DNA from: Lytechinus pictus
Lineage: Eukaryota
DNA: 64,000 nucleotides
Assembly (NCBI RefSeq): GCF_037042905.1
Contig: NC_087251.1
Coordinates: 46,316,001 to 46,380,000, forward strand
Reading direction: 5' to 3'
Position numbers and translations under genes: made by a program. Under the pieces are notes generated by a model. That model made no database searches, had not been told where the DNA came from, and was given only the letters and a program-made list of their open reading frames with translations. This document shows, in pieces, positions 5,901-55,937 of the stretch (positions are counted from its first letter, which is position 1; every line of letters begins with the position of its first letter).

Positions 5901-8900
5901 TGGAATATCTATAGAGAAAACTATAAGAATTGACACTTAAAACCCTATACCGGCTGCACAAAAATGCTGTTAGCGCTAGCAGAGCCCAACCAGTAGGCCC
6001 AGTCACATCTTTTGGATTGTGATGTCAAACATTTATCCAATAATGCACAGTTGTGACATGAGTATTGCTGTAACATTGCCAGTTGTGAGGGCATTGCTAG
6101 GGCTAACAATGTTTCTGTGTGGCCGATACTTGTGGAGAGTGGGAAATACTTATGGGATAGATTGCTTTAAATTATATTACTTTGGTCACATAATCAATGA
6201 TGACAAATCTCTGCGCAAATATGAAAGAGATTCACACATTACAAGAAAGGGTGTTGCCATCCTCACAGCCAGCATCCAGCCACACTTGTACATGTACATT
6301 GTGGTTCTTGTTGTGACCGAATCTCTTCATGTATTCATATTTTCCTTATCTGAGATTTGTGACCATTTCAAGAGAGATTAACCTCAGACGTCTTCCAGAA
6401 TCACTGGATTTATTTTGTCTGCAACAGTCCTGACGATATCCCTCAGAAGTGCAAGGCATTTGTTGTTGTTGTTGTTGAAATATTGCTGTAGAAAAACTGT
6501 TAGTAATAGGGGACTCATGAGGGCAGCACAGGGGCACTTTTTCACCGTAGAATCAGGATTGAAAACGTGTCTTTGAAAGACGTTTCTGCAGAAACACGGT
6601 TGCGTTTAGTCAAAAGTGAAAGTAAAATGTTTCAAATCACAAACCTGAAATGTGTGGGAAAAATGTGGTGTGTTGACAGATGTTTCTGCAGAAAAACATT
6701 TGAAAAGGGTTGACTAAACTTAACAGTGATATGAAAACTGATTCTATATCGTCAATGTGTCAGCCTACATCCTTGTCCATGCCAAACTGCGCTGTGCCAG
6801 TTGCATTCTTCGCCTTTGATTCCACTTGACAGAAGCTGTATGTATTGAAAATCAACGTTGTTTATCTTCTACAATATCAAAACCTGTGTTGAAGTTGACC
6901 TATAATGTTTGAATATGTGCACATGTTCTTTTTCTTCTTCCCCTTTGATATTGTGATCAGAAGTCAGTTACAGACCTTGACCAGTGGATCATAAAATGGA
7001 TTGGGTCAGGATTCAAGCATATAGCAGTTGAAGGGCATAGATTGTGAGTAGCACCAGTTTCAAGATTGTTCATAATCCTAAACATTTTTTCATTTCATTT
7101 CATTTTCAACAAAATATAAATCAAATAAATACAATCATAACAAGTCAACATCATAAAAAGATATACCAAGGTCATAAAATCAACTTGAAAAAGACATGTT
7201 ATAAGAAAGTTACATACAAAATAATCATGTTTAATTAAGGGATTTGTGATTTATAATTTGTGAAAATGGAGGATCCCACTAAAAAGCAAAGCTTGTTTAT
7301 TGTGGGCTCCTCAAAATATGACAAGCGAGAAATAAATTTTATATATACAAATCAAAATATAAACCATGATTACCAACAGGAGACATCATTAAAAGAAAAT
7401 ATTAAATAACCATTATATACGAAAATTACGCAAAAAACTCAGGAATGAGAAACAGTATAGAAAGAAAGCGGATGAATGAGAGAGAGGGAGGAAGGGGGGT
7501 GAGGAATGAATGTGAGAACTGCATATGAACTACAGAGAGAGGAGTGTAGACAAACAGAAGCAAAGTAGCGCATGAGTGAAAAGGAACGGTGAATAAAGAT
7601 TAAAAATCTGTGATGTATTTTTTAGACGTGATTATAGGATTTCAGTAAGAAAGATTTTAACTTTCTTTTAAAAGTTAAACATTAACCCCGGCGGGGACTA
7701 CACAGTGAGGTCTCTGTCTCTGAAATAGCATAACAACCAATAAAAAGAGTCCAACAGTTCGACTGGAAAGGTGAAATATTCCAAATGCTATTATGTGTTT
7801 TATCTTTATTTTCTGGGAACTGCTTCTCACAAGTTTTCAATGGTTATTTTTAATTTGTGTATCATTCTTATGCTGAAAAAAGAAAATTCAATAAATGATT
7901 CCCCTTCTCTTTCATGACACAGAGAGGACCCAGAAGGCTCATTTTGGCACAGTACAGCTATCGTGAAACGGGTTTCCCCCTGCCTTGTGGAAACGTCCTC
8001 AGGATCACAATACCGTCTCCATGGAAACTTCAATAAACTCTTAGCATTGGATCAAGGTAGTTTTTCTGCCATTTTTTTTTCCTACAAATTTATACTCTAC
8101 TGTAGTTTATTCCAATATTGTATTTATTTGAATAAATGGAATGAATAAATTGTGACAAGCAGTGAAAGTTCAAATGCAGTCTCCATTAATGTAAATTAGA
8201 GTTATCTCTCCTTAAAATCACCATTTGTTTAAAGTTATTTTGCTGAAATAGATCTATAAATATTGAAATATTTTGAAATTCCATTTCCATCAAGGAAATA
8301 CCTAATGAATAGTGAACATTTTCTACCTCCATGATAGCATCGGATCACCCTTTTTCTACCGCCTTTGTTTTATATATATATATAGATATATATCTTTTTA
8401 TGAAATTTGGAAAAACTATAGAATGCTCTTATTTTTCTTGTAATTTCAAATAAATTTTCACTGTTGCATTCATTTGATTTTACCTACTTATCAAAATAAA
8501 TTTTGGCATTAACTTTTACTGTCTCAAAAGTTTTTTTTTTAAAATGGATATTATATATTTAAAGTTAATTTTCTTTCAATCAGTAAGTTTGTACATGGAT
8601 TGCAATATGCCCCCTCCTTCCTCTGAGCTTTTTATTAAATTTATAGAGTGGTATTTGAAGCTCACCAACTGTTTATAGTAAGATAAAGATCATGAAGGGC
8701 ATCTGTTTCCCTCACTGTCAAATGTAGGATTTTCCAAGAAGTTAGTTCATCGTTTTCGGAAAGGATTCCCAGGACATTGGAAAGCCTGTTTAAAGCAAGA
8801 AGCATTGGAGCAGTCAGGAGGGTGAGTGTCAATCGCAACCCCACGATGCCCCACATCGTGGTCTAGTGCAGTGCTTCTCAACCGGTGGGCCGCGAAGCTC

Positions 8901-36554: not shown

Positions 36555-36814
36555 GTTATATATATATATATTTGTTTCATGTCCATTTTCTGATTTTCCA
36601 ATTTAGCTTTTGGCTCTATATACCTTCATTTCCCGTTTCTTGTTGCCTCTTTTCCCCATTTTCCCCGTGCCATTGAGTCATATATACCCTCTCTTGCCAT
36701 ATATGCAATCATAGTATTTTAAGGATATTTTGTACTTCCTCACATTTTCTTCTTTCCTTCGATCCTTTTCCAGATTTCCTTCAGTTCAATTTCCCTATCA
36801 TTCCCAGGACCAAA

Positions 36815-37495
36815 ATCCAATTGAAACCAGTTGGATTTCCAACTGGTTTCAATTGGTTTCAATTGGTTTCAACTGGTTTCAATTGGTTTTAACTGGAATT
36901 TAACAATTTCCAGTTGAAACCAATTGAAACCAGTTGGGCAACTGGAAATCCTAACTGGAACCAGTTGGGTAACTGGAAATGACTTCCAATTGGGAATGAT
37001 TTCTAACTGGAACCAGTTGAGTAACTGGAAATCCCAACTGGAACCAGTTGGGCAACTGGAAATCCTAACTGGAACCAGTTGGGTAACTGGAAATGACTTC
37101 CAATTGGAAATGATTTCTTACTGGAACCAGTTGAGTAACTGGAAATCCCAACTGGAACCAGTTGGGCAACTGGAAATCCTAACTGGAACCAGTTGGGTAA
37201 CTGGAAATGACTTCCAATTGGAAATGATTTCTAACTGGAACCAGTTGGGCAACTGGAAATCCTAACTGGAACCAGTTGGGTAACTGGAAATGACTTCCAA
37301 CTGGAAATGATTTCTTACTGGAACCAGTTGAGTAACTGGAAATCCCAACTGGAACCAGTTGGGCAACTGGAAATCCTAACTGGAACCAGTTGGGTAACTG
37401 GAAATGACTTCCAATTGGAAATGATTTCTAACTGGAACCAGTTGGGCAACTGGAAATCCTAACTGGAACCAGTTGGGTAACTGGAAATGACTTCG
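36815..37495. repeat. Higher-order minisatellite, 114-bp unit built from AACTGG/CCAGTT monomers
   Basis: Unit of 31+18+34+18+13 bp; the 38-aa repeat in ORF 36924 confirms the 114-nt period. Confidence 0.92.
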
Positions 37496-38415
37496 AATTT
37501 GTCTAAATTTTTTTCTTTAATTTCCTATTTCACTTTTTCTCTTTCCGAGTTTCCCTTCCCCTTGATCCCTTTTCTCTTTTTCCTGTTTTTTCATTTATTT
37601 TCCCGGTGAATTAAATCCACCAGGGGGGTAGTTTATATTGCCCCCCCCCCCCATGTCTGTTAATTACACCGCCTATATTCGTATATTTTTGAGGTGCATA
37701 TTTCTCAATATCATCAAAATGCACTGTTTTAGGGACAAAAAATTATTTGTCTAGCTCCTTAATTAGTCCTATTTTTACTGTTCTAGTTGGGAGGTCCTGA
37801 GAATAGCTGACTCGATATCCTGATCTATATTACTGTATAGGCGCATTTACTGCCCCCCCCCCAAAAAAAAAAAAAAAAATCCTGCTCATGGGTAGTCTGC
37901 AGGTACAGACCTTTGGTTTTCACAAGTGCATAATCCAAAGTAGATCTAGGGACTAGATACACGCACTCATGCACTGTGGCTGCTTCTACTAAATTTGACA
38001 TAAACACAAGGTTTGGAATATTGTGTCCACGCACCAACTGAGACATATTTGTTAGTGTCAAATTTTAGTGCTTGCAGACTAGCCGATGGGCCAGATGCTT
38101 CGAGAACGCGAGATATCACCCACGCGCTGCAACAGATTCGTCATGCATTGTGTGAAAACACAACAGGATTTTTTTACGATTCGCGTGCACCGAATCCATG
38201 GACCGAAACCATACAGATTAACGTAACAACTGGATATTGAGTCTAATCTTAAAAAATGTTGTACCGTATGGCCCATTGCGAAGGTACAGGACCTATGGAC
38301 ATGATTTCAGTGGAGAAGACCTCACTTTGTAGCTGAATAAAATCGTTAAATATCCGTAGCAACCTGGTGTATTTTACTTACAGATTATCATTTCTGGATA
38401 CCTAAATTAATTAAC

Positions 38416-38518
38416 ATGCCATCTGGTAAGGCACCAACTCATGGGCCGAGTCAATCGGCTTATGTTGATCGTGAAAAACCGGCTGAGATTAGACGAAGTA
38501 ACATCACTGCTGCGAAAG
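38416..38518 (+). CDS. CCT4: CCT4 exon 1 (MPSGK...[15 protein letters not shown])
   Basis: ATG 38416, AAG|GTAACT donor; a possible acceptor at 38383 suggests an upstream UTR exon. Confidence 0.92.
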
Positions 38519-41500
38519 GTAACTAACGCTCCTCTACTCTCTACTCTAGCTCCTTGATCCCGATCCTTGCTAGCCAGGGTAGCCAGCTGGCTTCTAAGTT
38601 CTAGAGAGTTAAACTCATTTACTAACGTATGCCTGCTCTCAACGAAGCCAGGAACTCCTGGCGCTAATGCAGTTTCGCACCGGCCGATTACCAGCATACC
38701 TCATCACCAAGGCAATACTTCTACTTGTTCGTGAAGTTGTTCCCAAATCACAAATGTCATCATGACAAGTCTCTCACTTCTCAGTCACATTTCGACTGTC
38801 AATATACCTACCCACCAGTGGCACTGGCAGTAGAGGCGTTGGTCAGAAAACTGGGATCATCCCAGTTTACAGCCAGTACAGGGACTGTCTCAGTTTTCAA
38901 AGATTTCTCCACACAAGAAATGATACTAGAAAGTTCATTCACCTGTCAAGTGCCGACACCAATCAAGTGCGCTAGTCAATGACTTGTAAACTAAATATCA
39001 CTTATCAGGTTTCATAACAAGATTATTGGTTGAAGACGGCAAGTCATGAAATATAGACGGTGAACTGGGGGAAATTGAGGTCACTGAATCTATTTTTAGC
39101 ACTCTCAATTTCCGTAATTACTGTCTTTGTCCCGCAGGGAAAGTGAAAAAAAAACGTCCCCTTAAAAAAAAAAATTGCCTTAAACAAGGACAGTCTCAAT
39201 TTATCAAGACATGATTTGTCTTGGTTTATGAGGATATCCTTGTTTTCTGGGACAATCTCAATTTCTGCATTCTGGACCAGCGCCTCTACTGCCCACCTCT
39301 TTTTCAAATATCGGGAACGGCTGTATTTCAGCTTTGATCTCGATGTCGTTGTTCGAATCCTCAGTCATCACTTCGCGGATCGCTTGGATTCGCCGGGCCG
39401 TGCGCCTTTATGTTGATATGCGACCAAAATATTCGCCTGCAGCATGCTGGCAGTTCGCCACATGTTCGCATGATTTGGTTGCTAACTTCAGTCCATATCG
39501 ACATTACGGCGAATCCAAGCGATCCGTGAAGTGATGTCTGAGGATTCGAACAACGAGATCAAAGCTGAAATACAGCCGTTCCCGATCGCGATATTTGGAA
39601 AAGAGGTGGGTATATTGACCTCGAAATGTGACAGAGAGACTTGTCATGGCATTTGGGAACAGTACTATTGGTGATGAGGTATGCTGGTAATCGGACTGCG
39701 TGCGAAAGTATCGATAGTGATAACGATATCCGGTCACATTGTCTACGCGGGAAATGGTCTTGGTTTGTGATCGGATCGCTCCAGTATCAATCGAAAATTA
39801 TCGAGACTCTGCAATTTCATGCATATTCACGCGACGCTCCGAAACCCGGAAATCAATTGACTCTGTACATGTTGCGATAGACTCTAAAAACTCCAGCGAA
39901 CATGATGATGCCATATCGACGCTAATTCATAAGATTTTGACCCGTGGAATCGCCCATGTAACTCCTGACAAGTGATAAGCAATGCTCGCGCCAAATTTCT
40001 ACAAATTGTATATTTGTGTAATCTTTTTTTTTTCTGTTGCTCATTCTTTTTTCGATTTTGTTTATTTGATTTCAGCTGTTGCAGATGCTGTCCGTACAAG
40101 TTTGGGCCCAAGGGGCATGGATAAGATGGTCAGTATAACATGTATTTAACTAGATTCTACTCTTGGTTTTTTTTTCCTTTTATGCCTCCATCAAATTTAT
40201 GTGTGTGCTTGATGTATTATGGGTGTCCGTCTTACTTTTTTCGTTCTCACAACAATTCAGTAATCATATGGTGGATCAACTTTAAACTTTACTTAAGTAC
40301 AGGTATGCATCACAAAGGAATATTTGCTGGATTGAGGACAATCCGATTATATTTTACGGTCACAAAGCCAAAGGCTTATAGTTAGCTTACTTAAATATGG
40401 AAAATAGTAGACATTTATGTATACATGTAACCCTTAGTCATGCTTGAAGTGGAAAAACACAATATTATATTCAGAGTGTATGTATTGTATATTCAGAAAT
40501 TCAGAAGGGGGAGGGAAACTGATCATCTAATTAGTAATAGTTTGAATTTTTAATCTGAATATGGACCTGTGTGAATTGTTTTCACCAGTATATAATAGTC
40601 ACTTTTGATGATATTTCTGTCCGTCTGTTGCAGATTCAAGATGCCAGGGGAGACGTAACAATTACCAATGATGGTGCCACCATCTTGAAGCAGATGCAAG
40701 TCCTTCATCCAGCAGCCAAAATGGTTTGTATCAAAGTAGTTTGGGGTGGCATTCTGAAAAACGTTATTATCTCCGTTCTTGTCGTTTGACTCAACTCATA
40801 GAGAGAGGAAGACGTTAAATCATTGCAAATCGGTGTTCTGAAAATCTTAACACGTTTTTTTTATCTCTGTAAGGACTGCCCCTATTAGTATTGCAAGCGC
40901 AAGTTATAGATTTATACACCCAGTACAGCTTTTAAATCAGTAAAAGATAAAGAACGTTTTCAGATTACCAATTTGAGATCGTGACGTAGATGAGAACATA
41001 TTTCAGATAAGAACTTTTTCAGAATACTGCCTATGATTTCTTGCTTTTAATAGTTGTAGGAGTGATGATAATGTTGATGTTTTTTTTATAATTATAAGCC
41101 AGTTCATATAGTGTTGTGTAAACTGGAATTGACAAATATTTTAATTGAAAACTTTCAAAAATCCATTTGCTGCTCTGCTAACAACCCTATGTTTCATTTC
41201 TTGTTTGTTTTCCTGGTTAGCTGGTAGAGCTTTCAAAGGCTCAAGATGTAGAGGCTGGTGATGGAACAACGTCTGTTGTGGTAATTGCTGGGAGCCTTTT
41301 GGAGGCAACTGCAAGGTTATTGGACAAAGGTAAATAGAGCAACAACAAACAGAACATGTTGTATTACAAAAAAAGTGGCCATCCTATTCCATTACAGGAT
41401 GCACATTGCACTTTTTATTTTAGTAGGTAAACAGGAAGATACATGTTGCCCTACTGTCCGCAATGAATTGTTAGTAAATGGAATAATTTATTATTTTAGA

Positions 41501-44500
41501 GGTTTTAAAGAATATTTTTCAATGGTCATATCCCACTAGGATAACAGATTTTATAAAGGTTTTGTTGGGTTTATCATGATCACCTTTACCTTGAAAAAAT
41601 GCAGGTCGTTTGGATTCATCTCGCCACCTCAATGGATGTACTTGTTTTTTACGGATAATAATGATATCATTAGGCGCTTTATTTTTCACCTGTAGTCCTG
41701 CTACTTGGAAGCCTAACTTGGTTTACATGATGTTTTTATTTCACACCGAGTCAAGTTTTCAATCTGTCAACTTTACCTGCCAACTTTTCATATTATTAAC
41801 AAGAAATATTCCTAATTTGAAGAAAAGAAAAGAATCTCATATTCCCTTTTTGTACAAGTATGTCTGACATCATTGAAATTCAGGACTGTTTCTTAAAAGA
41901 TTGTTTCTACTTGTATATCTTTGTTTTCAGGGTTGGTAGGTATGTTACAAAAACACACTCAAATTCTATCATATTATTTGTTTTCCATGCTTGCCAGGTA
42001 TTCATCCAACCATTATATCCGAGTCCTTCCAAAGTGCAGCAGACAAAGCCTGCGAGATCCTGGCTGATATGTCTGTCCCTGTGAACCTCAACGAGAGAGA
42101 GGCTCTTCTTCAAAGCGCCACTACATCACTCAACTCTAAGGTATGTCTGTCCTGTTCCTCTAAGTTTCCAGGGAGTTCCTGGTGAGTGTTTCATAAACAT
42201 GTTCGGCTGTTTATAAATTAATAACTACTTTACGAAGAGCTTTATGATTAACTGATATGCATTCTTGGGAGCCATTTAATATCTCGGGTATATCATTAAC
42301 TTCAAGAAAGGGTCACTAGTCAGCTTTATGAAGCTTTATGAAAAAAAAACCCTGATGGCATATTAAACCCCTTGACATGTGCCAACCATGCAAAGTCTCT
42401 TGGAATAACAGATCTAAGGGGTCCTAAGGATTCAGGACAATTTAGGGGGAGTATTTCCTTAAATGTTAGACCGACACAGTGTTAGCAACACTATAGCAAG
42501 TTTTAGCAACACTATAGCAAGTTTTAATTACAAATGGAATTTGCAGTCTGTATAATTTGTTAAATGCCAGTGAACTCTTTCTGATATTGGAAATTACTAG
42601 TGCTGTTATCAGTAAGAAATTCTCTGTCGATATATTGGTAAAAACACTTACTGACATCGACAACTATCGACAAAAGAACATTTTATTAATAGGCTGGTTT
42701 GAGGTAAAATTGAATGTGCCACGGCAGTTTAGACAAGGCCGCATCCTGTCCACGTCAGTGCAGTAGCTTTAGGCTAGGCTTGGGCGAGGCCGACAGCATA
42801 ACCGGCGACGCAGATTGTGCACTGTCAGTGTCAGTCCAACTTGTTAAATACTTTCTGAAGTTATGAACATGAAGAAATGAATAACACCCATACGAACTAA
42901 ACAGAAAGAAATTTACCTGTGAGGCTGTAACAGTTTCAAATCTTTCGATGTCTAAACTGATTTTTTAAACTGTTATTGTCTAGATCTATTACTTTATTAG
43001 AGTCAGACTCGTGACTTTGCAAGCGTGCATGCCACAGTGGGCCAGCGGCGGTGTTTTATGAACAAAATAATACAGACTGCTACTGCGAAAAGTGTGAATG
43101 TGAAGGAACTTTACTGTTCTACATAATAGCAGGTATTGTCTACAATGAGAGAAAGGTTATTGATATATCGCTAATTGGCAAAAACATGCGTTTATTGACG
43201 GGACTAGCGATAAAGAGTTTATCCATAACAGCACTAGAAAATACAGTTTTCGGAACACACCCTTGGGTTTCTTTCATTTCCTTTTTGTTTTTCCCATTGC
43301 CATGATGACGTAGCTTTACTTAGGACACCTATGAGTCTAACAGTGATTTTAGACAGAGCTATATCTGAGCAAAATTATTTTTTTACATTCTGACACCACA
43401 TAGCAAAGATTGAAAACAACTTAGGTTTTTTTCTGCATTTAAATTGCAAAATATACAGAAAAGGATCAACCTGAAATAAATAGAGTGTGTCGACTTATTC
43501 TTTTTTTTTTTAATTCCAGGTTGTATCCCAGTTCTCAAATCTCCTTGCTCCTATTGCAGTTGATGCAATCTTACAAGTCATAGACCCATCAACAGCCACC
43601 AATGTTGACCTAACTGACATCAAATGTATCCAGAAATTAGGGTAAGTACTTTCTGTTTGGGGGGAGGGGGAAGGGGGCAACAGTTACAAACATTTGGTAA
43701 TGGTTTTGTTGTCAGTAATACATTAACCATTGGTGTGGAAGTTTGTTTGTTTAAGGGTGAGGTGGGTGGGAGAGGGGTATTGCATTTTTTTTTCTAAACA
43801 CAAACTTAAATAAAATGCTCAATGTTATTACAAATTCAATGGGTTATGCAATTTCAAAATAGCCCAAGCTATATAGGGTGAAACAAAATAGTTGATATCA
43901 AAGCTAAGTTGCCTCCCAGTTGTGGCTTCATCACGCCTAACTACTTGTCTCTATTCCATTTCTACATTTTATACACTCCATAGGGGTACCATTGAAGATA
44001 CTGAATTAGTGAGAGGACTTGTTTTCAGTCAAAAGGCAGCAGGCTCTTCTGGCCCACACAAAGTAGAAAAGGCCAAAATTGGTCTTATCCAGTTCTGCCT
44101 TTCAGCTCCCAAGACAGATGTAAGTTTAGTGTCTTGTTTTCTTTTCATTTCATTGGTTTTCCATTAGATTAAAATGTATACAAAGAAATTTACAAAAACA
44201 GATAGACAGACAGGTAATAGTGTTGGACCAATAAAAACCTCATCAGGACTTTGCAGATGGCCCATATTAACATGAAAATAATACAAAATACATACTTCAT
44301 TTTCAATGGGCTTTTTCTTTTCATTTTATAATTTAAGATACTTCATATGCAACTAATTACAGTCCAACTTGTCTATAAAGTCCATCTAAGAGATACACTG
44401 GATACATATGACCTTTGTAGACAGTTTCTATAACACATTCTTTTCGAACGGAGACAATTTTGATGGCCACTAAAGAGAGTTTTGACTATAGGTGGTAAGT

Positions 44501-47500
44501 AATAAAGTTAGCCAAGCTGTGCAAAATTGACAAAATTTGCCATTTTGTAGCAATTTTATATCCCTATTGAGGATCTAAATGGACAAACTTCACTGTTTTT
44601 GTGCCGATTTAGAGAAGGGCTACAATTTGCTATTAACTAAGCTTTTTCGGTATTGATATTTTCAATACCGGTATTACTAATTGCTTCAATACCGGTATAC
44701 CGACTAATACCGGTGTAAATTCCCAATTTATTGTGCAAACAGTGTCCAATGTTTGTTTAGCCCTGATATGGCCTCGGATAAAGAGTGGATGCTTGCGGTC
44801 AGCTGAGGAATGCTCAGCCTGGTCCGTTCTCATTGACAGAAACTTTCTCAAACATATTTTCATAGATTGAAAAAATTTAAATATGACGAAGTTGAGACTT
44901 GTCTTGAGCCTTGCAAGTCACCACTAACCTTAGATTTTCAAATGGAAATAATCATGATTTGTTTATTAAAGAGAGATTAGAAAATAAGAAATTATCGTAT
45001 TTCAAGTCCCAACTATTAAAGACCTGAGCAAAAAGTTATACGATCATGCTCTCTCCCGGCCCCACCGAGACGGCGAGAGGGAGTTACCTGTGCACGTGCG
45101 CGAAATTATCTCAGCAAGCACGTGGTACAATTAATCATATCTCCATGCTAAAATGAATTAGATGTAGCCAAGTTACCAAATGCTATACCGCACCTACTCA
45201 CTGCTACTTTGCTAAACGTGTGTACATGCCCCAAGTTCCAAGCACCAAATTCCCTGCTGAAACAGTCAAGGAGATTTGCGTGATTCTCCCTTCACCGATT
45301 TGGCCCCACTCATTCACATTCAGATTCGCCCCTTTTTTTACCACTCACATCAACACGTGTTCGTCGAAGGTTCAAAGTTTGTTGACCTCAAATTTTGACG
45401 TCTCGTAAAGAACTTTTCTTATGTCTATTGTGTTGAACCCCCCCCCCCCCCCCTCTTAGCTAACTTCAGGCCATGTTTTCTCCCTCTTGTGAATCTCCAC
45501 ATGTTGTCTAAAAAGTAAAAACCTCCCCCTTGACTTCTTATTCCGCGGCCGCCTCTTTCTCACTCTTTTTTCTTGATTGTGTTTTTCTTTATCTCCCCAG
45601 CCCCTTAATTCCTCACTCTCTCTTTCCCATTGGCCCATCCTGTCCCCGTCACCACCCCTCTCTTACCACAATCAACATCCTCCTCTTCTCCGAGTCTCGA
45701 TCTTCCCCCTTTTTTTCTATTTCTCTCTTCTCTCGCCCCCCCCCCCCCAAGTCCTGGTCATCAATTATACTTTTTCATTTTAATAATGTCAATTCTATCT
45801 TTCACACATGCCAAAATTGAGTTGATCATCATCTTATCACGCCCCCAGTCCATCATAAATTTAAATTACAATCAATCCAATAGTTTATTTCATTTTATTC
45901 ATGACCGCACATGCACAAAAAGGATACAGCACCCATCACAAATCACACAAATATTCCAGCCATTTTCTTCCTTCCATTCACGATCACTTCACAGATCATT
46001 TTCAAAATAAACCAAGAGGAATGGCATAACATTTTTTTCCTGTTGTCAAATTTTTTTTTCCTTTTTTTTTTTTTTTTTTTTTTCTTTTTTTTTCTTTTTT
46101 TTTTTATTATTTTTTATATTTATGTATGTATTTTTTTTTTGGGGGGGGGGGGGGTGTCAAACGACTTGTGTAGCAGGCTGTATAAAAGTAAACTTGTCAT
46201 AATTGAAACAAGTTAAGAGCAGTCCGAGAAAAAAACTTGCACTAAGAAAAAAAAAGTGTTAATCCCTGTGGTTTGTCTGTCGATGCCCAGCACCCCCTTT
46301 CTCTCCCCCCCCCAAAAAAAAAAAACTCAAGAAATACCATTGAAACAAGTTAAGAGCAGTCCGAGAAAAAAAAAACTTGCATAAAGAAAAACAAGTGTTA
46401 ATCCCTGTGGTTTGTCAGTCAACGCCCCAAGGTTGATACTCTGTTGAAGACACCACGTGGTCAAAAGGCAGGCTGGGGAGTGTTTCAAAAAGAGTTTTGT
46501 CGGTGATTTTGTTTGTTTATAGAGGGATGTTACAAGCTATGACAAACCCTCGCATGTGATTGGCGGAAAGCAAATCTGTTGTTGAATCACTGAAAAAAAT
46601 CTTCATGAAATGCTCCCCATCTCGATCGGCTTCGTTGGTTTTCTGTAGCTGTGTGCACAAGTGCACGGAGCCGACATGCACCCCATGTAGGCTAGGCTAG
46701 GCCTACGTAGCGGTGGGGCCGAGGCCTTATGCAGCGGCTAGCGGAGCTCAGACATTAGTTCAGGGGCGATGTATTCATTTCGAGGTTAGATTATCGGATT
46801 CTGATTTCATTAAATACGTTGAGAGAGCCAAACAACTTATTGTTTTGGCTTAATTTTACTGTAAAAATACCCATAGACGACAATACAGAAGAAAATACCG
46901 GTATGATATTTTCAACTTTTGGTATGACGGTATTTCGGTATTGAAATTTTAACGGCGGTATCCATACCGGTATGACATTCATACCGAACGGTATTACTAA
47001 TACCGGTATACCGAAAAAGCTTACTATTTACCCTAAAAGAGCCGGGTTATTTGGACCCATCTCATAGCCGAGGGATGGGGGGGGGGTGGAATCCACCCCC
47101 CCCTGAGATCTCGGCCGTCGATCGCACAAGCACCGCAAAAATTTGCACAGTGGTAGTGTGCGATAAAAATCTACAAGTCTGTATGATTAATTTTTCTGAA
47201 AAAATAAGATTTTTTTTAAATGAATTAATTATGCTAATTTATGCATGAAATAAAACATTTGCTCTAATTAACTTATTAAAATTGCTAATTTTTTATTCAG
47301 ACTCTTTGTAGGATTCTGATCAAATGTACATTAAAAAAAATTTGGTATCGCAATTTTTTTCTTATGTATTTTATTACTTTTTAAATTTCTTATGTATTTC
47401 TTTGTTCTTTTACTTTTTGTTTTTTATTGTTTTTTTGATGGAAATTGTTGCAGACTTAATTCTGATCATAAACAAGGCATAATTAATTAATTTTAATCAG

Positions 47501-50500
47501 TAAAAGTAGAAATAATGATACATTTATGAATTTTGGCTTAATACATAATTTGCATTGGATTTGTACATGAATTCACGTTTTTGAGCAATTTTGGGTCTGA
47601 CATGCACTTACATAATGTTGCGTAATTTCGTAACCGCGTACCTGGGCATCGCAAATTTGGTCTCAAAAGTTGCGCGAGATTTGAAAGTAAAAAGTCAGCG
47701 AGCGGCGCGGTCGAAAAATTTCGCGCAGCGGATTAATCGCGAAAAATCTGCCCCCCCCCCCCCCCCTCGGGCCTTTTAGGGTAATGTCTGATTTGTAGAA
47801 TCCCTTGCCATGATGACGTAGCTTTACTTAGGACACCTATGAGTCCAACAGTGATTTGAAAAGGAGCTATATCTGAGCAAAATTGTAATGAGTTGTTTTT
47901 CTCATCAGTCTTCGCATGCAGACCTCTAAAGCTATTGAAAAGCAAATGTCTACAAAACGGGAAGTTGCTCATTGTGTATATGTGGTTGATTATACTGTGG
48001 TTTTTCAAAGATTGTTGTGCCTGTTACATTGATGAGTATTGTGTTAATAAAGTTCGAGCTTTGTTTTGTTTTTTGTTCTTTTTTTAGTATAGATATCATA
48101 AGAAAAGATATATCCTATAATGTCCTACCTTAGCTTCACTAGTTACCCAGTAACGGCAACATTTCATGAAAAATTTTGTCAGTGATTTTCTCTGACAAAA
48201 TTATCTGAGCCAATCAGATACAAGGATTTGCAGTAGCTTATAACAAATCTTCACCTTCCTGCGCAAAGGCTGTTAGCGAGTCGCCTTCCCGCACAAAGGC
48301 CGTTAGCGTGCACTGCATGTCGCCTTCTCGCAGAGAGGCCGGTAGCGTGAAGTGAACAGTGCGCGCTAACGGCCTATGTGCGGGAATGCGACTGCTAACG
48401 GCCTATGGGCGAGAAGGCGACAAAGTAGTCAGTGAAAATCACAAGTACTTGATAACATTTGGTAATTGCTATTTCAGATGGACAACCAGGTGGTGGTCTC
48501 AGATTATACCCAGATGGATCGTGTGCTAAGAGAGGAAAGGGCTTACATCCTCAACCTAGTTAAACAGATCAAGAAGGCTGGCTGTAATGTACTCCTTATT
48601 CAAAAGTCAATTCTCAGGTAAAAAAAAAACTCTGCTATAATAGTGAAATAAAGGAATGAATGACTTTGTATGAATGAGGATATGGAGGAAAACATATTAA
48701 CAGATTTATTTGTTTTTGTCAATTTTCAACAATATTTTGTTCTGTGTTTCAAAGCGTATTAATATTCCGTAAGTATGAATGTTTGCTTGTATCTTTACAT
48801 GAATTAATAAAGAAAAATTGAGTTTTACTGAAAAGCGCATAGAAATGTATTTAAACCGGTTGTGGTAAATATTTTCTTATGATTTCAACTACATGGAGTT
48901 GTTTTCATTTTCATATAATTTGTATTTTTTGATAATTTTCTTTGACTATGTTTTTACTGGAATACAATTTAATTATGCCAATGATTGATGTTATTATAAA
49001 AATCCATTACATTTTTTTTTTCAAAAACAGCTCTGGAAAATATGATATATATGTAAAATCATAAGCAAATATCAGAAGGTTAATTTGCGATGATGACTTG
49101 GCTTTTACTTAGGACACCTATGAGTCCAACGTTGATTTTAAAAAGGCTGTATCTGAGCAAATCAAACAATTTCTTCTTTTTTTGCAAATGGCAGATTGCA
49201 CATTACTTATCAAATGTTGTTCTTGGACTCGGTCACTATTTTTTTCCTTCTCTATTATAGGGATGGCTTGAGTGATCTAGCCCTTCACTTCCTACAGAAG
49301 ATGAAGATTATGGTGATAAAGGATGTGGAGAGGGAAGATGTAGAGTTTGTATGCAAGGTGCGATCAGTAGATTGTGTATCAAAAACTTTCATTCTTAATA
49401 TAAAGATACATATGCACACACACATGCTGCCTTTCGATAGGTGATAACTTTTCAACCATACCAAATTACACATGATGTAAGTTGGGCCCCTTTAAAGTTT
49501 AACATGCTATTAAATGTCAGGTCTGATTTCTACGATCCCTTGCCATGATGATGTAGCTTTACTTAGGACACCTATGAGCCCTACAGTGATTTGAAAAAGA
49601 GCTATATCTGAGCAAAACTACAGTGATTATTGTCTTGCATCCCTCACCTGTCATCGGATGCTGACTTATGCCAGCATCCTCACACTCTGATATAAAAGGA
49701 TAATTATAATCATAGTTACATTTGCATAGTGCTTGATACATGTGTTTCTAAGCGAGCTCTCTATATGTTACTATTATTACTCTAGTCATTGGATCCATCG
49801 CAGTTTCCACACATAAGAGTGCACCATCTCCACTCTCTGGGAAGCATATTTTAACCAATGCACACATGCAAAATCACATTGATGTTCGCATCCTACCTGG
49901 TACCCATTTAAAACCTGGGTGGAGAGTGATAAACATGAATAAGTGATTTCAGTTGGACATTTTGCACCTGGTGGGATTTGAACCCTCAGCCCTTAACATT
50001 AAGGTTCAAGTGACTGAACCACTAAACCACAACAAAGCCATGCAACATTGTATTTTTCATTTCCTCTATGATTCCAGGCCATTGGGTGCAAACCCATTGC
50101 AAGCATTGACCACTTCACACCTGAATACCTGGCATCAGCTGACCTGGTGGAGGAAGTCGTTACAGGTACCAGCAAGGTTGTCAAGGTAAGTCAAGATCAC
50201 ATTGGTTTACTGCAGAGAATCATGAAGGTCACAGAAGACTCCATTGGCGGATTTAGATGGAGGCGGCAAGGGACGCACACCCCCTTTATGATTTGAGAGC
50301 CACCCATTGGAAACTTACTATAGATAAATAAAAGAAAATTGTCATTTTCACGAACTCTACTCCAGTTTGCTCATTGCACCTCCTCTTTCTAAAAAAAAAT
50401 GCACATTGACACATTTCTTAAAAGATATTTCTGCAGATAGCCATGATTTTAAGCATTTTTAAAACTATTTTTACTTTTTCTCTGTTTTTTCTATTGAATG

Positions 50501-53500
50501 GTCTTCCAACAACAAAAAGTTCTATCTAATGCTAGGGGTCACATCATCGAAACCGACCCTAGAGAGATGAAAGCTGTTCTCTTATTCCCAATGGCATATA
50601 ATATCATCGGTCGGTTTGGAGTTTAGAGCACCATCGAAACTGACCCTAGAGAGATGAAAGCTGTTCTCTTATTCCTAATGGCATATAATATCATCGGTCG
50701 GTTTGGAGTTTAGAGCACCATCGAAACCGACCCTAGAGAGATGAAAGCTGTTCTCTTATTCCTAATGGCATATAATATCATCGGTCGGTTTGGAGTTTAG
50801 AGCACCATCGAAACCGACCCTAGAGAGATGAAAGCTGTTCTCTTATTCCTAATGGCATATAATATCATCATTCGGTTTGGAGTTTAGAGCTAAGACCCTA
50901 GGTGTGTCCTAAGAAAGAGTCTCGTAATAGCATACTTCCACCTTAATGTAGGAATGACTTGCCTTCATTCTTATTCCTTATCCTATCTTGTCATTGTTAG
51001 ATCACCGGTGCAGCTAATCCTGGTAAGACTATGACTGTCCTGGTTAGGGGATCCAACAAGCTTGTCCTAGAAGAGGCAGAACGCTCTATCCATGATGCTC
51101 TCTGTGTCATCAGGTGTCTTGTAAAAAAAAGGTATACCACCCTACTATTCCACTCGATTTATATTGCTATAATGATTTCCATTGCCATGTATACATAATG
51201 TTTTGTGCAACAGTGTAGTGCTGCTATGCTGTGAGTCTACATTGCAGTTGCTTGTTCTACCCAGTTCCCACAGTCACGATCGAAACCGTTGAACGTGGAG
51301 TAATCGTATCAGATTTTAGACAGTTCACAAATTTTTGCGATCTGCTACGAAAGGCCAATCGTGGTGTTCCCAATGGATCGCATGACAGTGCGAACAATGC
51401 ATTAGTATTTCCATATAATAACCTTTTTGAACATTTTCACCAGCATTTTTCTCAATTCTCACTTCACTTCATGAACTGCTCAAGTCATAATCATTTGAGA
51501 GCATTAAAAGTTTTCAAAGCAATAAAAAAAATGACAAATAATTTCAGGAAGGTCTCAAATATCGAGAATCGCTCATACATTATTTGTATAGATTCATGTA
51601 ATCCAAGGCATGAGCAAACTTTAAACTCTAATTCATAGTTACAGTACCATTAATTTAATTCATAGTTACAATACCATTAATTTTTGCATATTGAGTATAT
51701 TCACATTTGATTTCTTGTGATTCATTATCCTAAGTCATGTAAGTTGCTCTCAAACTAGCCAGTTAACTGATGTCACCTTTTCAAAGTTTTACAACGCTAA
51801 TGTTCTAATAGACAGGTTCAAACAATATTTCGTTTATTCATTTTTTTTTTTTATATACATTTGGCATCATTATAATTTCTTATCTAAGTTCTGCTCAACC
51901 TTTTCAGACGGTCTTTCAAATCTTTAGTTAATATGCATCTTCTCATAGATTTTCAATTATTATCTTACATTGCCGCTATTACCTTGAAAATATCATGATA
52001 TTTTGAATTTATATTGTAAAATTTCTGTAAATTTCTTGATTGTTTTGTTATATTTGTTAAGTTCATTGTTTTTTTTTATTGTAAAACATCTGTCAATTCA
52101 GCTTTTAAGCTGCGATCACATGTTTTTAATAAATCTTGAAATCTTTAGGTTATTTTTTTAATGATTTATACAATCCCTTGCCATGATGACGTAGCTTTAC
52201 TTAGGACACCTATGAGTCCAACAGTGATTTGAAAAAGAGCTATATCTGAGCAAAATGGTAGTGAATATTGTCTTGCTTCCCTCACCTGTCATCAGATGCT
52301 GACCTATGCCAGCATTCTCACACTCTAAAAATAAAAGGATAATTATAATCATAGTTACATTTGCATAGTGCTTGATACATGTGTTTCTAAGTGCGCTCTC
52401 TATATGTTACTATTATTCCATCATCAGTTATATGATGCAGACCTATGCCAGCATCTTCACACTTCGAAGCCATGCAATATTTTATTTTCACTTTTTGGAG
52501 GTCTGTTCTAGACGGTCTAGACCTTAGTCGACCTGACTGGTTGACTCAGTGCCTAACCAAAGCTGCAGGTCACCAGTGGACCAATGAAGTAAAGAAATTC
52601 TCTATCTCAAAGATTTTGAAAATGGACCAGTATAAGAACTAAATTTCCAAAAAGTTTCATATGGTACAAGATTACATTCAAACAAGTGGCATTATGGACA
52701 TGAGATTACATTTCTATTACCAATCAGGACATCTCAAATTTTCTTGCTTGAATTTATTGTGCTGTAGTACCTGTGCCGATAAGATATTGTTGCATTCTAG
52801 GTCGACGTACACTGTCACATCCCATATTTCCTCTCACGCCTCATTATTTTCTCTTCAAACAGGGCTCTGATAGCTGGCGGAGGGGCCCCCGAGATCGAGA
52901 TCTCTCACCGCATGACGGAGTACAGCAACAGCCTGAGTGGCATGGAGGCTTATTGCTTCCGAGCCTTCGCCGAGGCCATGGAGGTCATCCCGTCTACGCT
53001 GGCTGAGAATGCCGGGCTGAATCCCATCAGTGTCGTGACCGAGCTGAGGAACAGGCATGCCCAGGGAGAAAAGACTGCTGGTATCAATGTCAGAAAGGTA
53101 CATATAGGTATCTCACGTACGAGGCGTTGCAAGGAACTTGCGATCAGTTGCAAATCTATTTGGAGTCCCCAAGCCAATCAGGTCTTGCAGATGATGGAGA
53201 ATTTGCAACTGATACTAATCTACTTCTTGCAACAAGGGGTGCCAACTGTTTAAACCTAATAGTTTGTAGTATGCTGAAGACTGGGCAGTATTTCATGAAA
53301 CAAATAGTGACTCTTGTTATAAGCTGCTTAAACGCTTACATCTGATTGTTTCAAAGCAAAAATCACTTTTTGTTCAGGAAGTGCTCCCCCTGTGTTATGA
53401 CAATACAGCTTTATATTTATTGAGACTCCATGAACATAGAACATACAACCTCATCACTCACTATTTCTTTTGTTTTTTATTGTTTGAATGAAACCCAACA

Positions 53501-55937
53501 AAAACGGCCTAAACAGAAACTTGGCACTACCAAAACCGTTCGCTAGGCCCTCGCTTGGTGAAATATATCAACAAGTTACTGCTGTCTGAAGATCTCATCT
53601 TCACAATTACCATACTATTTGCTCCTCAGGTTCTTTTGGTCATCATCAAAACCTCGGTGCTCAACTGAAAAGGAGCATTTGTGCCAGGAGCCAATGTCTT
53701 ACTAAAATATTTTATTTACTTTTCCTTTGCAAATTGTTCACTTCACAAACCTGTAACGACTCACTAATTAGACATTTGTTAATTTTTTTTGTCTTAGGGT
53801 GCCATCACTAATATCCTTGAGGAGAATGTAATCCAGCCTCTGCTTGTATCAACCAGTGCAATCCAGCTGGCTTCAGAGACAGTGAGGAGTATCATGAAGA
53901 TTGATGACATTGTAAGTATAAAAAGCCTGAACTGAAAAGTCTCCAGTTTTCCTTGTTCTAAAATAGGAATTTCATATTCTTCGGTGACATGTATTGAAAC
54001 ATGATAACACAAATTCTTAGACAAATCTGTTTTAATGCATCTGCTTACCGTGGGAGGTTACTGGAGGCATTATGCGTTTTTGGTCGTCCAGCCATCCATA
54101 AACTAAAGAACCATTTGATTGGTCAATTTCAAACTATACATATAGGAGTGACAATGATCTGATCAGTTTTGAGGGTAACAAGATGAGAGGTCATTATGTA
54201 CCTGACAGTTTAGGGTTGAACTTCAGAAATGGCTATGTATGAATATGGAAGTGACAATGATCCGAGTAGATGTTGGGGTCATGAGATTAAAGGTCACAGA
54301 GGTCATTGCATATATTGAAATATCTTGTTCTAACGATAACTGAAGAACCATTTGAAGGATCGACTTCAAACTCAGTTCATATATGCATATAGGGTGGACA
54401 ATGATCTGAAAATGATTAACCCTTATCTATCAAATTGACCCCCCCCCCCATCGACAAAATTTGTCACTACGCCATGGCGCAATTTTTTTTACTGCACTGC
54501 TCGCTGACTTTTTACCTTAAAGCCTTGCGCATCTTTTGAGACCAAATTTGCGACCCCCCGGGTACGCGGTTCCGAAATTATGCAACATTTGTTAAGCGCA
54601 TGTCAGACCCAAAATTGCTCAAAAACGTGATTCTGTGTACAAAGTCAATGCAAATTTTGTTTTTCAACCTAAAAATTGATTTATTTTACGCTATTTATGA
54701 TTGCAAAAAGGTCCCCACCAAAGTTCATCGGAAAAAACAAAGGTTTAAAACAAACAAAGAAATCATAACAATTTAAAAAAAACAATAAAATTCATAAGAA
54801 ATAATTACATTTTGGCAATCCTTTATCGATATTTGTTAGAAATGTAAAAATTGATACTCTCACACCAAAAATTAGCATTCTACTAGTTATGTAAATTGAG
54901 TTAAAGGCAAAAACATACACAAAAAGCCAAATTCAGGGCAAATTTAATACGCTTATTCGCATAATTAATTAATTCAAATATATGAAGAAAAAAAAATTTC
55001 AAAATTTTACAATATTCTTCCAGTATACATCCAGCTCTACACGCGTGCAAATTTTCTTTGGCGATAGCGCAATCAGCGGTCGAGATCTGAGGGGAGGGGT
55101 CAAATTGACCCCCTGTATATTTTCCCGGTCTGAAATGCCCAGTTTATATAGGGTTAAGGTTCATGAGGTAAAAGGTCACAGAGGTCAGTGCATATATTGA
55201 AATATTGTGTTCTCGCGATAATGAAGAACCACTGAGGGATCAAATTAGTTCATGCATGCATATTTGAGAGACAAAGATCTTATCAGATTTTGGGGTCAAA
55301 GGATGGGCATAAACTTGAAAATATCACATTTTCTTCAAAAGTAAAAAAAAATTAAAAATTGAGAGTTAACTTCAAACTTGTCTGAGTTGATTTTATATTT
55401 GCATATGAGTGATGATGATCTGGGGAGCGTTTCATGAAGGGACTTTGTCCGACAAGTTCTGTTTTATCCGACAATTACCATAGTAACAGTACCTCTCAGC
55501 AAATCAGAATCAAGGAAAGATGTCAGATCTGACAACTTGTCGGATGAAAATGTTGATGAAACGCTCCCCAGATGATCCACTAAACCATTGCGTCTATGAA
55601 TGTGGAAGAGCCGTGGTGTAGTGGTTCTTGAAAACAGAGGGTCGTGTGTTCGATTCCCACTGCGAATGGGTACCCGGTAGGATGCGAAAGCCTATGTAGT
55701 ATTCCTAGCAATTGAGTCTTGGAACTCTTGTTGGAATGCTCCCCAGGGAGTGGAGAAGGTGCATACATTGTATGCGGGCATGCAAGGTTCCGATGACCGG
55801 AGTAATAATATGCTGTAAAGCACTTTAGGCCATTATTATTATTATTGATGTGCATAGTCAACTTAGAAGTGTGTAACCCCAAGTCATTGAATTGTCTCTT
55901 TCTCTTTCTGTCTTTTCATCAGGTCAATGCTCGATAA
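38416..55937 (+). CDS. CCT4: T-complex protein 1 subunit delta (CCT4), 14 coding exons, 531 aa
   Basis: Exons 38416-38518, 40076-40128, 40634-40723, 41221-41329, 41998-42140, 43520-43641, 43984-44119, 48478-48617, 49261-49357, 50078-50185, 51001-51131, 52863-53097, 53798-53911, 55923-55937 (1596 nt, all GT-AG, phases consistent). Motifs: [79 protein letters not shown]. Confidence 0.97.
38826..39610. mobile_element. Two adjacent TIR elements in CCT4 intron 1 (38826-39292 and about 39292-39610)
   Basis: GGCAGTAGAGGCG/CGCCTCTACTGCC termini; the second has about 110-bp inverted arms (CCCACCTCTTTT..GGATTCGCCG). Confidence 0.7.
40076..40128 (+). CDS. CCT4: CCT4 exon 2
   Basis: [17 protein letters not shown]. 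Confidence 0.95.
40634..40723 (+). CDS. CCT4: CCT4 exon 3
   Basis: [30 protein letters not shown]. Confidence 0.95.
41221..41329 (+). CDS. CCT4: CCT4 exon 4
   Basis: [20 protein letters not shown]. Confidence 0.95.
41998..42140 (+). CDS. CCT4: CCT4 exon 5
   Basis: [11 protein letters not shown]...TTSLNSK. Confidence 0.95.
43297..43372 (+). ncRNA. SNORD58: Box C/D snoRNA, U58/SNORD58-like, copy 1 (CCT4 intron 5)
   Basis: TTGC/GCAA terminal stem, box C ATGATGA 43302, guide CTTAGGACACCT, D' ATGA, C' GTGATTT, box D CTGA 43365. Confidence 0.88.
43520..43641 (+). CDS. CCT4: CCT4 exon 6
   Basis: [16 protein letters not shown]...QKL. Confidence 0.95.
43984..44119 (+). CDS. CCT4: CCT4 exon 7
   Basis: GTIEDTELV...SAPKTD. 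Confidence 0.95.
44638..47023. mobile_element. 2.4-kb non-autonomous hAT-like element in CCT4 intron 7
   Basis: TIR TAAGCTTTTTCGGTAT / ATACCGAAAAAGCTTA, subterminal ATACCGGTAT repeats, 8-bp TSD CTATTAAC/CTATTTAC. Confidence 0.8.
47031..47781. mobile_element. piggyBac-like MITE
   Basis: CCCTAAAAG ... CTTTTAGGG termini; body shared with 54420-55153 (inverted) and 22368-22631. Confidence 0.75.
47805..47880 (+). ncRNA. SNORD58: Box C/D snoRNA, U58/SNORD58-like, copy 2 (CCT4 intron 7)
   Basis: Same architecture; box C 47810, box D 47873. Confidence 0.88.
48478..48617 (+). CDS. CCT4: CCT4 exon 8
   Basis: [21 protein letters not shown]...QKSIL. Confidence 0.95.
49083..49162 (+). ncRNA. SNORD58: Box C/D snoRNA, U58/SNORD58-like, copy 3 (CCT4 intron 8), most diverged
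   Basis: ATTTGC/GCAAAT stem, box C 49090, guide intact, box D 49153; about 100 nt from the 3' splice site. Confidence 0.88.
49261..49357 (+). CDS. CCT4: CCT4 exon 9
   Basis: [11 protein letters not shown]...EFVCK. Confidence 0.95.
49540..49615 (+). ncRNA. SNORD58: Box C/D snoRNA, U58/SNORD58-like, copy 4 (CCT4 intron 9)
   Basis: Box C 49545, box D 49608, guide intact. Confidence 0.88.
50078..50185 (+). CDS. CCT4: CCT4 exon 10
   Basis: [13 protein letters not shown]...KVVK. Confidence 0.95.
50545..50890. repeat. 87-bp tandem repeat x4 in CCT4 intron 10
   Basis: Units start at 50545, 50632, 50719 and 50806; near-identical. Confidence 0.95.
51001..51131 (+). CDS. CCT4: CCT4 exon 11
   Basis: [10 protein letters not shown]...[21 protein letters not shown]. 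Confidence 0.95.
52178..52253 (+). ncRNA. SNORD58: Box C/D snoRNA, U58/SNORD58-like, copy 5 (CCT4 intron 11)
   Basis: Box C 52183, box D 52246, guide intact. Confidence 0.88.
52863..53097 (+). CDS. CCT4: CCT4 exon 12
   Basis: [12 protein letters not shown]...GINVRK. Confidence 0.95.
53798..53911 (+). CDS. CCT4: CCT4 exon 13
   Basis: [14 protein letters not shown]...KIDDI. Confidence 0.95.
54420..55153. mobile_element. piggyBac-like MITE
   Basis: TTAA|CCCT...AGGG|TTAA. Confidence 0.78.
55923..55937 (+). CDS. CCT4: CCT4 terminal exon, coding part (VNAR*)
   Basis: Long pyrimidine tract plus CAG acceptor, then GTC AAT GCT CGA TAA. Confidence 0.9.
   Translation, partial: VNAR

Follow-up and report, generated by a model that had tools for sequence, protein, structure and literature searches.

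Why should one chaperonin gene carry five similar small RNA elements, each in a different intron? The question is raised by CCT4, which lies in a 64-kb stretch of the Lytechinus pictus genome (contig NC_087251.1, positions 46,316,001 to 46,380,000), hereafter called the window. An earlier note, made from the DNA letters alone, had read the elements as an array of small nucleolar RNAs (snoRNAs) of the U58/SNORD58 type. Following up that reading, we conclude with high, though not complete, confidence that they are five paralogous, intron-encoded box C/D snoRNA genes of this type and that they belong to a family of 12 genes spread over three housekeeping hosts. What is new is the set of members and their host, within a known snoRNA family; the system itself is of a familiar kind.

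Five snoRNA elements in the introns of CCT4

The five elements were all located where the earlier note had placed them, on the sense strand of CCT4 introns 5, 7, 8, 9, and 11, with one element of 77 nucleotides (nt) per intron. Each of the parts that had been described was present in every copy: a box C (ATGATGA), a guide, a D′ box (ATGA) directly after the guide, a C′ box (TGATTT), and a box D (CTGA), enclosed by a terminal stem TTGC/GCAA of 4 to 6 base pairs (bp). All five copies have the features of the box C/D class, namely ATGATGA and CTGA near the ends and a short terminal stem. When the five sites were aligned with 20 nt of flanking sequence, their similarity began and ended at the terminal stem. 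The copies can be told apart, since any two differ at 1 to 16 positions. Copies 2, 4, and 5 are 95 to 99% identical (99% between copies 2 and 5), and copy 3 is the most diverged and has the 6-bp stem.

The 13-mer ACTTAGGACACCT occurred five times in the window, always on the plus strand (at 43318, 47826, 49107, 49561, and 52199). Shuffled sequences gave an expectation of 0.07 occurrences, and five were reached in none of 100 shuffles. A simple C/D scan of positions 38000 to 54300 on both strands, set to demand boxes C and D, a stem of 4 bp or more, and 10 nt or more of perfect complementarity to ribosomal RNA (rRNA), returned exactly these five elements. Within the window, the family model also matched only the five CCT4 copies.

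The host gene was identified by its exon at 52870 to 53100, which scored 133 bits to T-complex protein 1 subunit delta versus about 57 bits to other subunits (phmmer, PDB), and by exon 8, which matched Pfam Cpn60_TCP1. Splice sites were placed with the help of RNA reads and of the genomic sequence: loose ends of RNA reads set the end of exon 7 and the start of exon 10, and the ends of introns 5 and 11 were read from the sequence. Introns were numbered by manual reading of the exon translations, counting from the first coding exon, so that a noncoding leader exon would shift the numbers by one.

In a comparison with Rfam under E-value reporting, SNORD58 (RF00151) was the best of 4227 families for all five copies and aligned end to end at 27.3 to 33.4 bits. 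The boxes and the guide aligned with the RF00151 consensus, the guide letter for letter, which bears out the earlier statement that the guide is that of vertebrate U58. The second-best family, again for all five copies, was Drosophila snoMe28S-Gm3113 (RF00531), at 20.9 to 29.5 bits against a gathering score of 70.

Predicted target in 28S rRNA

The rRNA genes (rDNA) of the same genome were located on small repeat contigs and on contig C18 and were then annotated. In this genome's own 18S, 5.8S, and 28S rRNAs together, AGGTGTCCTAAG occurred once, at 28S positions 3016 to 3027, in agreement with the claim that the guide is complementary to conserved 28S sequence. Every copy forms a 12-bp Watson-Crick duplex with this segment. 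In the CCT4 copies, the fifth base upstream of ATGA pairs with 28S G3020. Under the D′+5 rule, the predicted site of methylation is the G of GGU-G-UCC, as had been proposed. For human SNORD58, the cited sources give 28S Gm4198 as the target, numbered G4228 in the newer scheme (PMC9696202, PMC12288042). By guide identity and this assignment, taken from the papers, G3020 should be the counterpart of human Gm4198/Gm4228.

A family of 12 copies in three hosts

A BLAST search of copy 2 against its own genome (811.7 Mb) returned nine places. The pattern consisting of TGATGA, 7 to 14 nt, and CTTAGGACACC was found at 12 places, compared with none for the reversed control. The bare 12-mer had 93 genome matches versus 29 for the control, most of them the 28S target in rDNA repeats and the rest scattered singletons. 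The 12 copies comprised five in CCT4, three in ubiquitin-RPS27A, and four in PUF60, and all were in sense orientation to the host with one copy per intron. The RPS27A host was recognized as a ubiquitin-RPS27A fusion gene by flanking exons that match Pfam ubiquitin and Ribosomal_S27a. The PUF60 orthologue was recognized by a UHM exon that scored 105 bits to human PUF60, and an RRM exon was also present. RNA length across the family was 77 to 84 nt. In all 12 copies, D′ (ATGA) and C′ (TGAT(T/A)T) were invariant or nearly so and stood 9 nt apart. Both are degenerate relative to the consensus, as is usual for the D′ and C′ boxes of box C/D snoRNAs.

The earlier note had stated that human SNORD58 copies reside in RPL17 introns, and amniote copies are indeed reported there (PMC2817437, PMC1636440). 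In the L. pictus RPL17 gene (contig C5, 31.21 Mb), there was no guide match, and the 3.1-kb RPL17 stretch gave no match to Rfam or to the family model. The proposal that the family had moved host to CCT4 was right in that CCT4 hosts five copies and RPL17 none, but it left out the seven further copies in RPS27A and PUF60. It is better replaced by the statement that the family has three hosts, of which CCT4 is probably the latest. The suggested coupling of rRNA methylation to chaperonin transcription did not hold up as a specific feature, being only a generic consequence of intronic location.

Constraint and structure of the copies

An alignment of the 12 copies had 33 box and guide columns, 30 of them invariant, compared with 10 of 54 columns elsewhere. 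The guide was exact in all 12 copies by pattern search, and the lone guide column that appeared variable was an alignment artefact. At the terminal stem, 83% of the cells across the 12 copies could pair, compared with 17 to 40% when the partners were slid by 1 to 3 columns. Three of the five stem pairs showed changes on both sides, and the observed covariation score was reached by 12 of 500 shuffles. The one structure that RNAalifold proposed for the 12 copies, a trivial 5-bp hairpin within the guide, lacked covariation and was discarded.

A second helix was found inside the CCT4 copies. In all five, the stretches that follow box C and precede box D pair with each other over 7 to 9 bp, with energies of −6.0 to −9.0 kcal/mol, and at most 3% of shuffles were as good. 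Copy 3 retains this helix through G-U pairs and shows compensating changes (GGCU/GGCU). RPS27A copy b has a 7-bp internal helix of different sequence. We tentatively regard the internal helix as a spacer-closing structure in a single-guide snoRNA. Consistent with the helix, the CCT4 copies have no credible second rRNA target: the best candidates upstream of box D paired with rRNA over 8 to 9 bp, including 3 to 5 G-U pairs, and were rejected as chance. As a separate observation, PUF60 copies b and c can pair, through the sequence ahead of box D, with 18S at about 1128 to 1138 (TTGCAAAGCTG) over 10 to 11 bp, of which 2 to 3 are G-U pairs. These two copies may carry a second guide that has no equivalent in the CCT4 copies.

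Taken as a mechanism, splicing of the CCT4 pre-mRNA would release five introns. As is typical of the class, core snoRNP (small nucleolar ribonucleoprotein) proteins bound to C/D and C′/D′ would protect an RNA of about 77 nt as the remaining intron sequence is trimmed. The 12-nt element that precedes D′, whose pairing with 28S is evident at the level of the letters, would then place fibrillarin so that G3020 is methylated on its ribose. The sequence ahead of box D would pair with the segment just after box C instead of with rRNA.

The flanks of the copies were not uniform. Positions 49524 to 49778 around copy 4 match 52162 to 52417 around copy 5 over 256 nt at 92.6% identity, with 16 nt upstream and 162 nt downstream of the snoRNA in common (blastn), and copy 2 has 16 to 19 nt upstream in common with copies 4 and 5. 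Copies 1 and 3 have only the snoRNA body in common with the other copies (79 to 94% identity to other CCT4 copies), and their flanks could not be aligned. The earlier remark that most surrounding intron sequence is unrelated is accurate for copies 1 and 3 but fails for copies 4 and 5 and in part for copy 2. Because copies 4 and 5, and part of copy 2, have common flanks and copies 1 and 3 have none, the CCT4 array was built in several steps. Judged from the alignments, the older members have kept every predicted functional element while their introns diverged. The flank of copies 4 and 5 was also considered as a mobile element, and this was ruled out: only two full-length copies exist in the genome, and its second half weakly resembles about nine dispersed fragments.

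Two guide registers

The spacing between guide and D′ divides the family into two groups. In 8 of the 12 copies (the five in CCT4, RPS27A copy c, and PUF60 copies b and c), ATGA directly follows the guide. In the other four (RPS27A copies a and b and PUF60 copies a and d), one extra base precedes D′. Along PUF60, the order from a to d is extra-base, G-register, G-register, and extra-base. If D′ is ATGA in all copies, the +5 rule predicts that the extra-base copies direct methylation of the neighbouring U3019.

Human 28S has an adjacent Um4227/Gm4228 pair, and the table of a 2024 review gives the guide of Um4227 as "unknown" (PMC11550049). SNORD58C was predicted earlier to guide Um4197, the older number of Um4227 (PMC1636440). 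The parallel between the two registers and this human pair is suggestive. We put forward only tentatively, as the somewhat less probable case, that the family is an old two-register system in which eight copies address G3020 and four address U3019, together giving a Um-Gm doublet like human Um4227/Gm4228.

Relatives in other organisms and probable order of events

The pattern of box C, guide, and D′ was also searched for in metagenome contigs, where it returned 18 eukaryotic loci, all with full C/D architecture. The neighbouring genes that could be named are given in Table 1. For most of these loci the gene neighbourhood was established, and residence in an intron for only some of them. One locus (L020) is from a moderately diverged eukaryote and has three copies in RPS27A according to the family model. 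Two are extra-base copies upstream of the ubiquitin exon that RPS27A copy a precedes in L. pictus, and one is a G-register copy, with a canonical CTGA as D′, in the intron that holds RPS27A copy c in L. pictus. The RPS27A exons of the two organisms are 84 to 87% identical in DNA, and the introns are unalignable. Since L020 carries both registers, RPS27A hosting with both registers is common across a substantial divergence. A tblastn search of the 18 loci with exons of L. pictus matched RPS27A in one of them and CCT4 and PUF60 in none, the latter a weak negative because the flanks extend to at most 2.5 kb.

Within L. pictus, the closest outside relative of the CCT4 copies is RPS27A copy c, in the last intron of that gene, with 82 to 86% identity versus 61 to 80% for the other non-CCT4 copies. 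It lies on the same contig as CCT4. Because RPS27A hosting is common to L. pictus and L020 and copy c is the closest relative, CCT4 looks like a secondary, amplified host. The simplest history would run from RPS27A, as the older host, to CCT4 and then from intron to intron, a direction that we infer from these comparisons. Most likely, a G-register copy like that in the last RPS27A intron was copied into CCT4. Small DNA-level duplications would then have spread it among the introns, the latest of them (copies 2, 4, and 5) still retaining common flanks.

Two further sequence features were seen alongside these results. In several metagenome loci (L016, L019, L021, L024, and L020:2106-2188), CGTTACC stands upstream of box D. 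Its complement, GGTAACG, is at 28S 3008 to 3014 in the L. pictus genome, directly 5′ of the main target. In those metagenome organisms, one snoRNA may address two adjacent 28S segments. Elsewhere in the window, at 36800 to 37500, six-frame translations repeat with a period of about 115 to 200 nt on both strands (NQL...GTSWVTGNDFQL motifs), which suggests a tandem repeat array upstream of CCT4.

Table 1. Locations of the snoRNA copies, their host genes, and related loci (plain coordinates are positions in the window)
Feature	Location	Strand	Host or neighbour	3′ end to 3′ splice site (nt)	SNORD58 score (bits)	Remark
Host gene CCT4	38417..53938, approximate coding span	+				13 coding exons, about 534 amino acids, by reading of exon translations
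snoRNA copy 1	43297..43373	+	CCT4 intron 5 (42141-43519)	146	27.3	
snoRNA copy 2	47805..47881	+	CCT4 intron 7 (44120-48477)	596	33.3	
snoRNA copy 3	49085..49161	+	CCT4 intron 8 (48616-49258)	97	27.5	
snoRNA copy 4	49540..49616	+	CCT4 intron 9 (49359-50078)	462	30.4	
Downstream flank of copy 4	49617..49778	+				Duplicate of copy 5 flank (52255-52417)
snoRNA copy 5	52178..52254	+	CCT4 intron 11 (51132-52862)	608	33.4	
RPS27A copies a, b, c	L010:4654-4733, 5398-5481, 6119-6201; contig C7, 16.585-16.587 Mb	-	Consecutive introns of ubiquitin-RPS27A gene			
PUF60 copies a to d	L011:3315-3396, 4635-4714, 5850-5929, 7088-7169; contig C12, 7.7248-7.7287 Mb	+	Four consecutive introns of PUF60			
Metagenome locus L020			RPS27A			tblastn
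Metagenome locus L024			RPS5			Pfam; copy between two RPS5 exons
Metagenome locus L019			Pumilio repeats			Pfam
Metagenome locus L016			Chromo domains			Pfam
Metagenome loci L022, L030			PDZ domains			Pfam
Metagenome locus L029			RED-like protein			Pfam

Expression of the host gene

Transcription was examined over window positions 48400 to 49700 in three raw rRNA-depleted, 151-nt paired RNA sequencing (RNA-seq) runs under the same species label, with about 6% of each raw run, and in one contig run. CCT4 exons 8 and 9 were covered by reads stranded as for a plus-strand gene, and the GT..AG junction 48615>49259 of intron 8 was present in all four runs. The host CCT4 is transcribed and spliced on the plus strand. 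In the third raw run, about two reads spanned 49060 to 49235 and look like unspliced precursor. A signal of snoRNA size was not seen in these runs.

In the contig run, which is of uncertain type, two low-depth contigs (2 to 4× versus 22.7× for the exons) lay over copy 4 and its flanks at 49402 to 49688, and the rest of introns 8 and 9 within the examined interval was empty. These contigs could represent precursor RNA or DNA. One of them, with differences at eight positions, may stem from a paralogous or allelic copy. Exonic single-base differences between runs were seen at 48492, 48498, and 49342 (G>T, C>A/G, and A>G). Some runs carried them as fixed changes and others lacked them, which probably reflects polymorphism between individuals.

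Weighing of the alternatives

Several observations weigh against the assignment to working SNORD58 genes. At Rfam gathering thresholds, there was no match in the whole window, and on this point the Rfam check proposed in the earlier note went against it: the five copies, at 27.3 to 33.4 bits, are all below the SNORD58 gathering score of 42, as is the best family member anywhere in the genome (36.7 bits). The scores of the five copies are low because each RNA exceeds the 65-position model by 12 nt. The internal helix of the PUF60 copies was no better than in shuffles. The other adverse points can also be called upon by a different explanation, in which the RPS27A and PUF60 copies provide the function, the duplicates in CCT4 are mostly or all silent or poorly processed, and the array reflects neutral copy-number drift. 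A survey in fly judged many annotated fly snoRNAs to be unexpressed, according to the cited preprint (bioRxiv 10.1101/2023.05.25.542231). In L. pictus, copies 3 and 4 had no reads in two of the three RNA-seq runs and showed no pile-up, and copies 2, 4, and 5 are duplicates too recent, with 95 to 99% identity and common flanks, to show selection alone. The terminal stems are 4 bp in four of the five CCT4 copies, whereas the RPS27A and PUF60 copies have longer external stems, unrelated in sequence, with energies of −7 to −12 kcal/mol. In CCT4, all copies except copy 3 are located 146 to 608 nt from the 3′ splice site, far from the 70 to 80 nt that Hirose and Steitz are said to have found optimal in mammals in 2001. 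However, copies 1 and 3 have no flank similarity and yet keep every box, the guide, and the stem, and copy 3 combines compensating changes in the internal helix with a longer stem. The libraries were also ill-suited to the question: 151-nt paired libraries usually lose 77-nt RNAs, and the missing reads are weak evidence against a small RNA. We consider the explanation by silent duplicates unlikely.

Two other explanations concern the nature of the elements themselves. Their main role might be an effect in cis on CCT4 splicing, exerted through base pairing with intron sequence close by, and not that of rRNA guides. Effects of this kind are reported for some mammalian intronic snoRNAs (PMC10324135), but nothing in the present data points to such a role. 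Conservation falls on the rRNA guide and the boxes and not on host-specific sequence, and the same RNA occurs in three unrelated hosts, so we regard a primary role in splicing as very improbable. Alternatively, the elements might be a dispersed repeat or a transposon fragment that resembles a snoRNA by chance. The weak matches of the second half of the copy 4 and 5 flank to dispersed fragments are the one observation in its favour. The counts already refute this idea, which we give practically no weight: box C with the guide occurs at only 12 places in 812 Mb, compared with no control matches, and all of them are intronic, in three genes, and sense to the host. The genome-wide occurrence in both orientations that the earlier note had named as a sign of a transposon was thereby excluded. 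The printed flanks contain no poly(A) tail; target-site duplications were not looked for.

Comparison with known snoRNA systems

The reading as SNORD58-type genes can be set against several known systems. Vertebrate SNORD58A to SNORD58C (RF00151) agree with the family in box order and in the antisense element (CUUAGGACACCU) that precedes D′. Their assignment to human 28S Gm4198/Gm4228, with SNORD58C predicted to guide Um4197, parallels the two registers described above. The arrangement is also alike, and SNORD58 serves as the textbook example of cis-duplication. Four SNORD58 cis-duplicates have resided in different introns of RPL17, one per intron of a single host, since the bird-mammal ancestor, according to the cited study (PMC2817437). 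The L. pictus family differs in its hosts, which are CCT4, RPS27A, and PUF60 with RPL17 empty, and in having 12 copies. Its RNAs also exceed the Rfam model in length, with insertions of about 6 nt after box C and before C′, and have AUGA as D′, compared with UUGG in the Rfam SNORD58 consensus. Drosophila snoRNA:Me28S-G3113 (RF00531) has GGACACCUAUGA in common with the family, which comprises the same guide end and the same AUGA D′, and its name implies the same G target.

Intronic snoRNA locations are reported to be unstable over deep time, with broad host expression as the main requirement, a pattern termed "constrained drift" (Hoeppner and Poole 2012, PMC3511168). The present family fits this pattern, as an old snoRNA family found in different housekeeping hosts by lineage, with relatives in or beside RPS27A, RPS5, Pumilio, chromo, PDZ, and RED-like genes. 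It does not differ in kind. What is particular here is an unusually clear likely donor, RPS27A copy c, and a fivefold intragenic expansion. A gene of the CCT chaperonin family is already reported as a snoRNA host, since human TCP1 carries SNORA29 and SNORA20 (PMC4824147). Those snoRNAs are of the H/ACA class, from two different families, and in single copies, whereas CCT4 carries five copies of one C/D family. Within the limited literature covered by our search, no paper named CCT4, PUF60, or RPS27A as a SNORD58 host.

Implications

The value of these results is in annotation and comparison more than in concept, because host turnover by constrained drift and multicopy SNORD58 in RPL17 were already established. 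An animal genome without annotation gains a complete and internally consistent snoRNA family, whose 12 genes are divided among three hosts and two guide registers. The results also provide a clean example of an intronic snoRNA that colonised a new host and then spread intron by intron, in which the likely donor and duplications of different ages are readable.

If the two-register reading is true, the split between the registers would predate the separation of vertebrate SNORD58A and SNORD58B from SNORD58C, as both registers coexist in RPS27A in L. pictus and in the L020 eukaryote. The reading would also suggest that human Um4227 is guided by a U58C-like RNA. The CCT4 array would then amount to a lineage-specific fivefold dosage boost of the G register only. 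The register difference, if it holds, would explain an adjacent Um-Gm pair that is conserved to humans, and this is the point with the widest reach.

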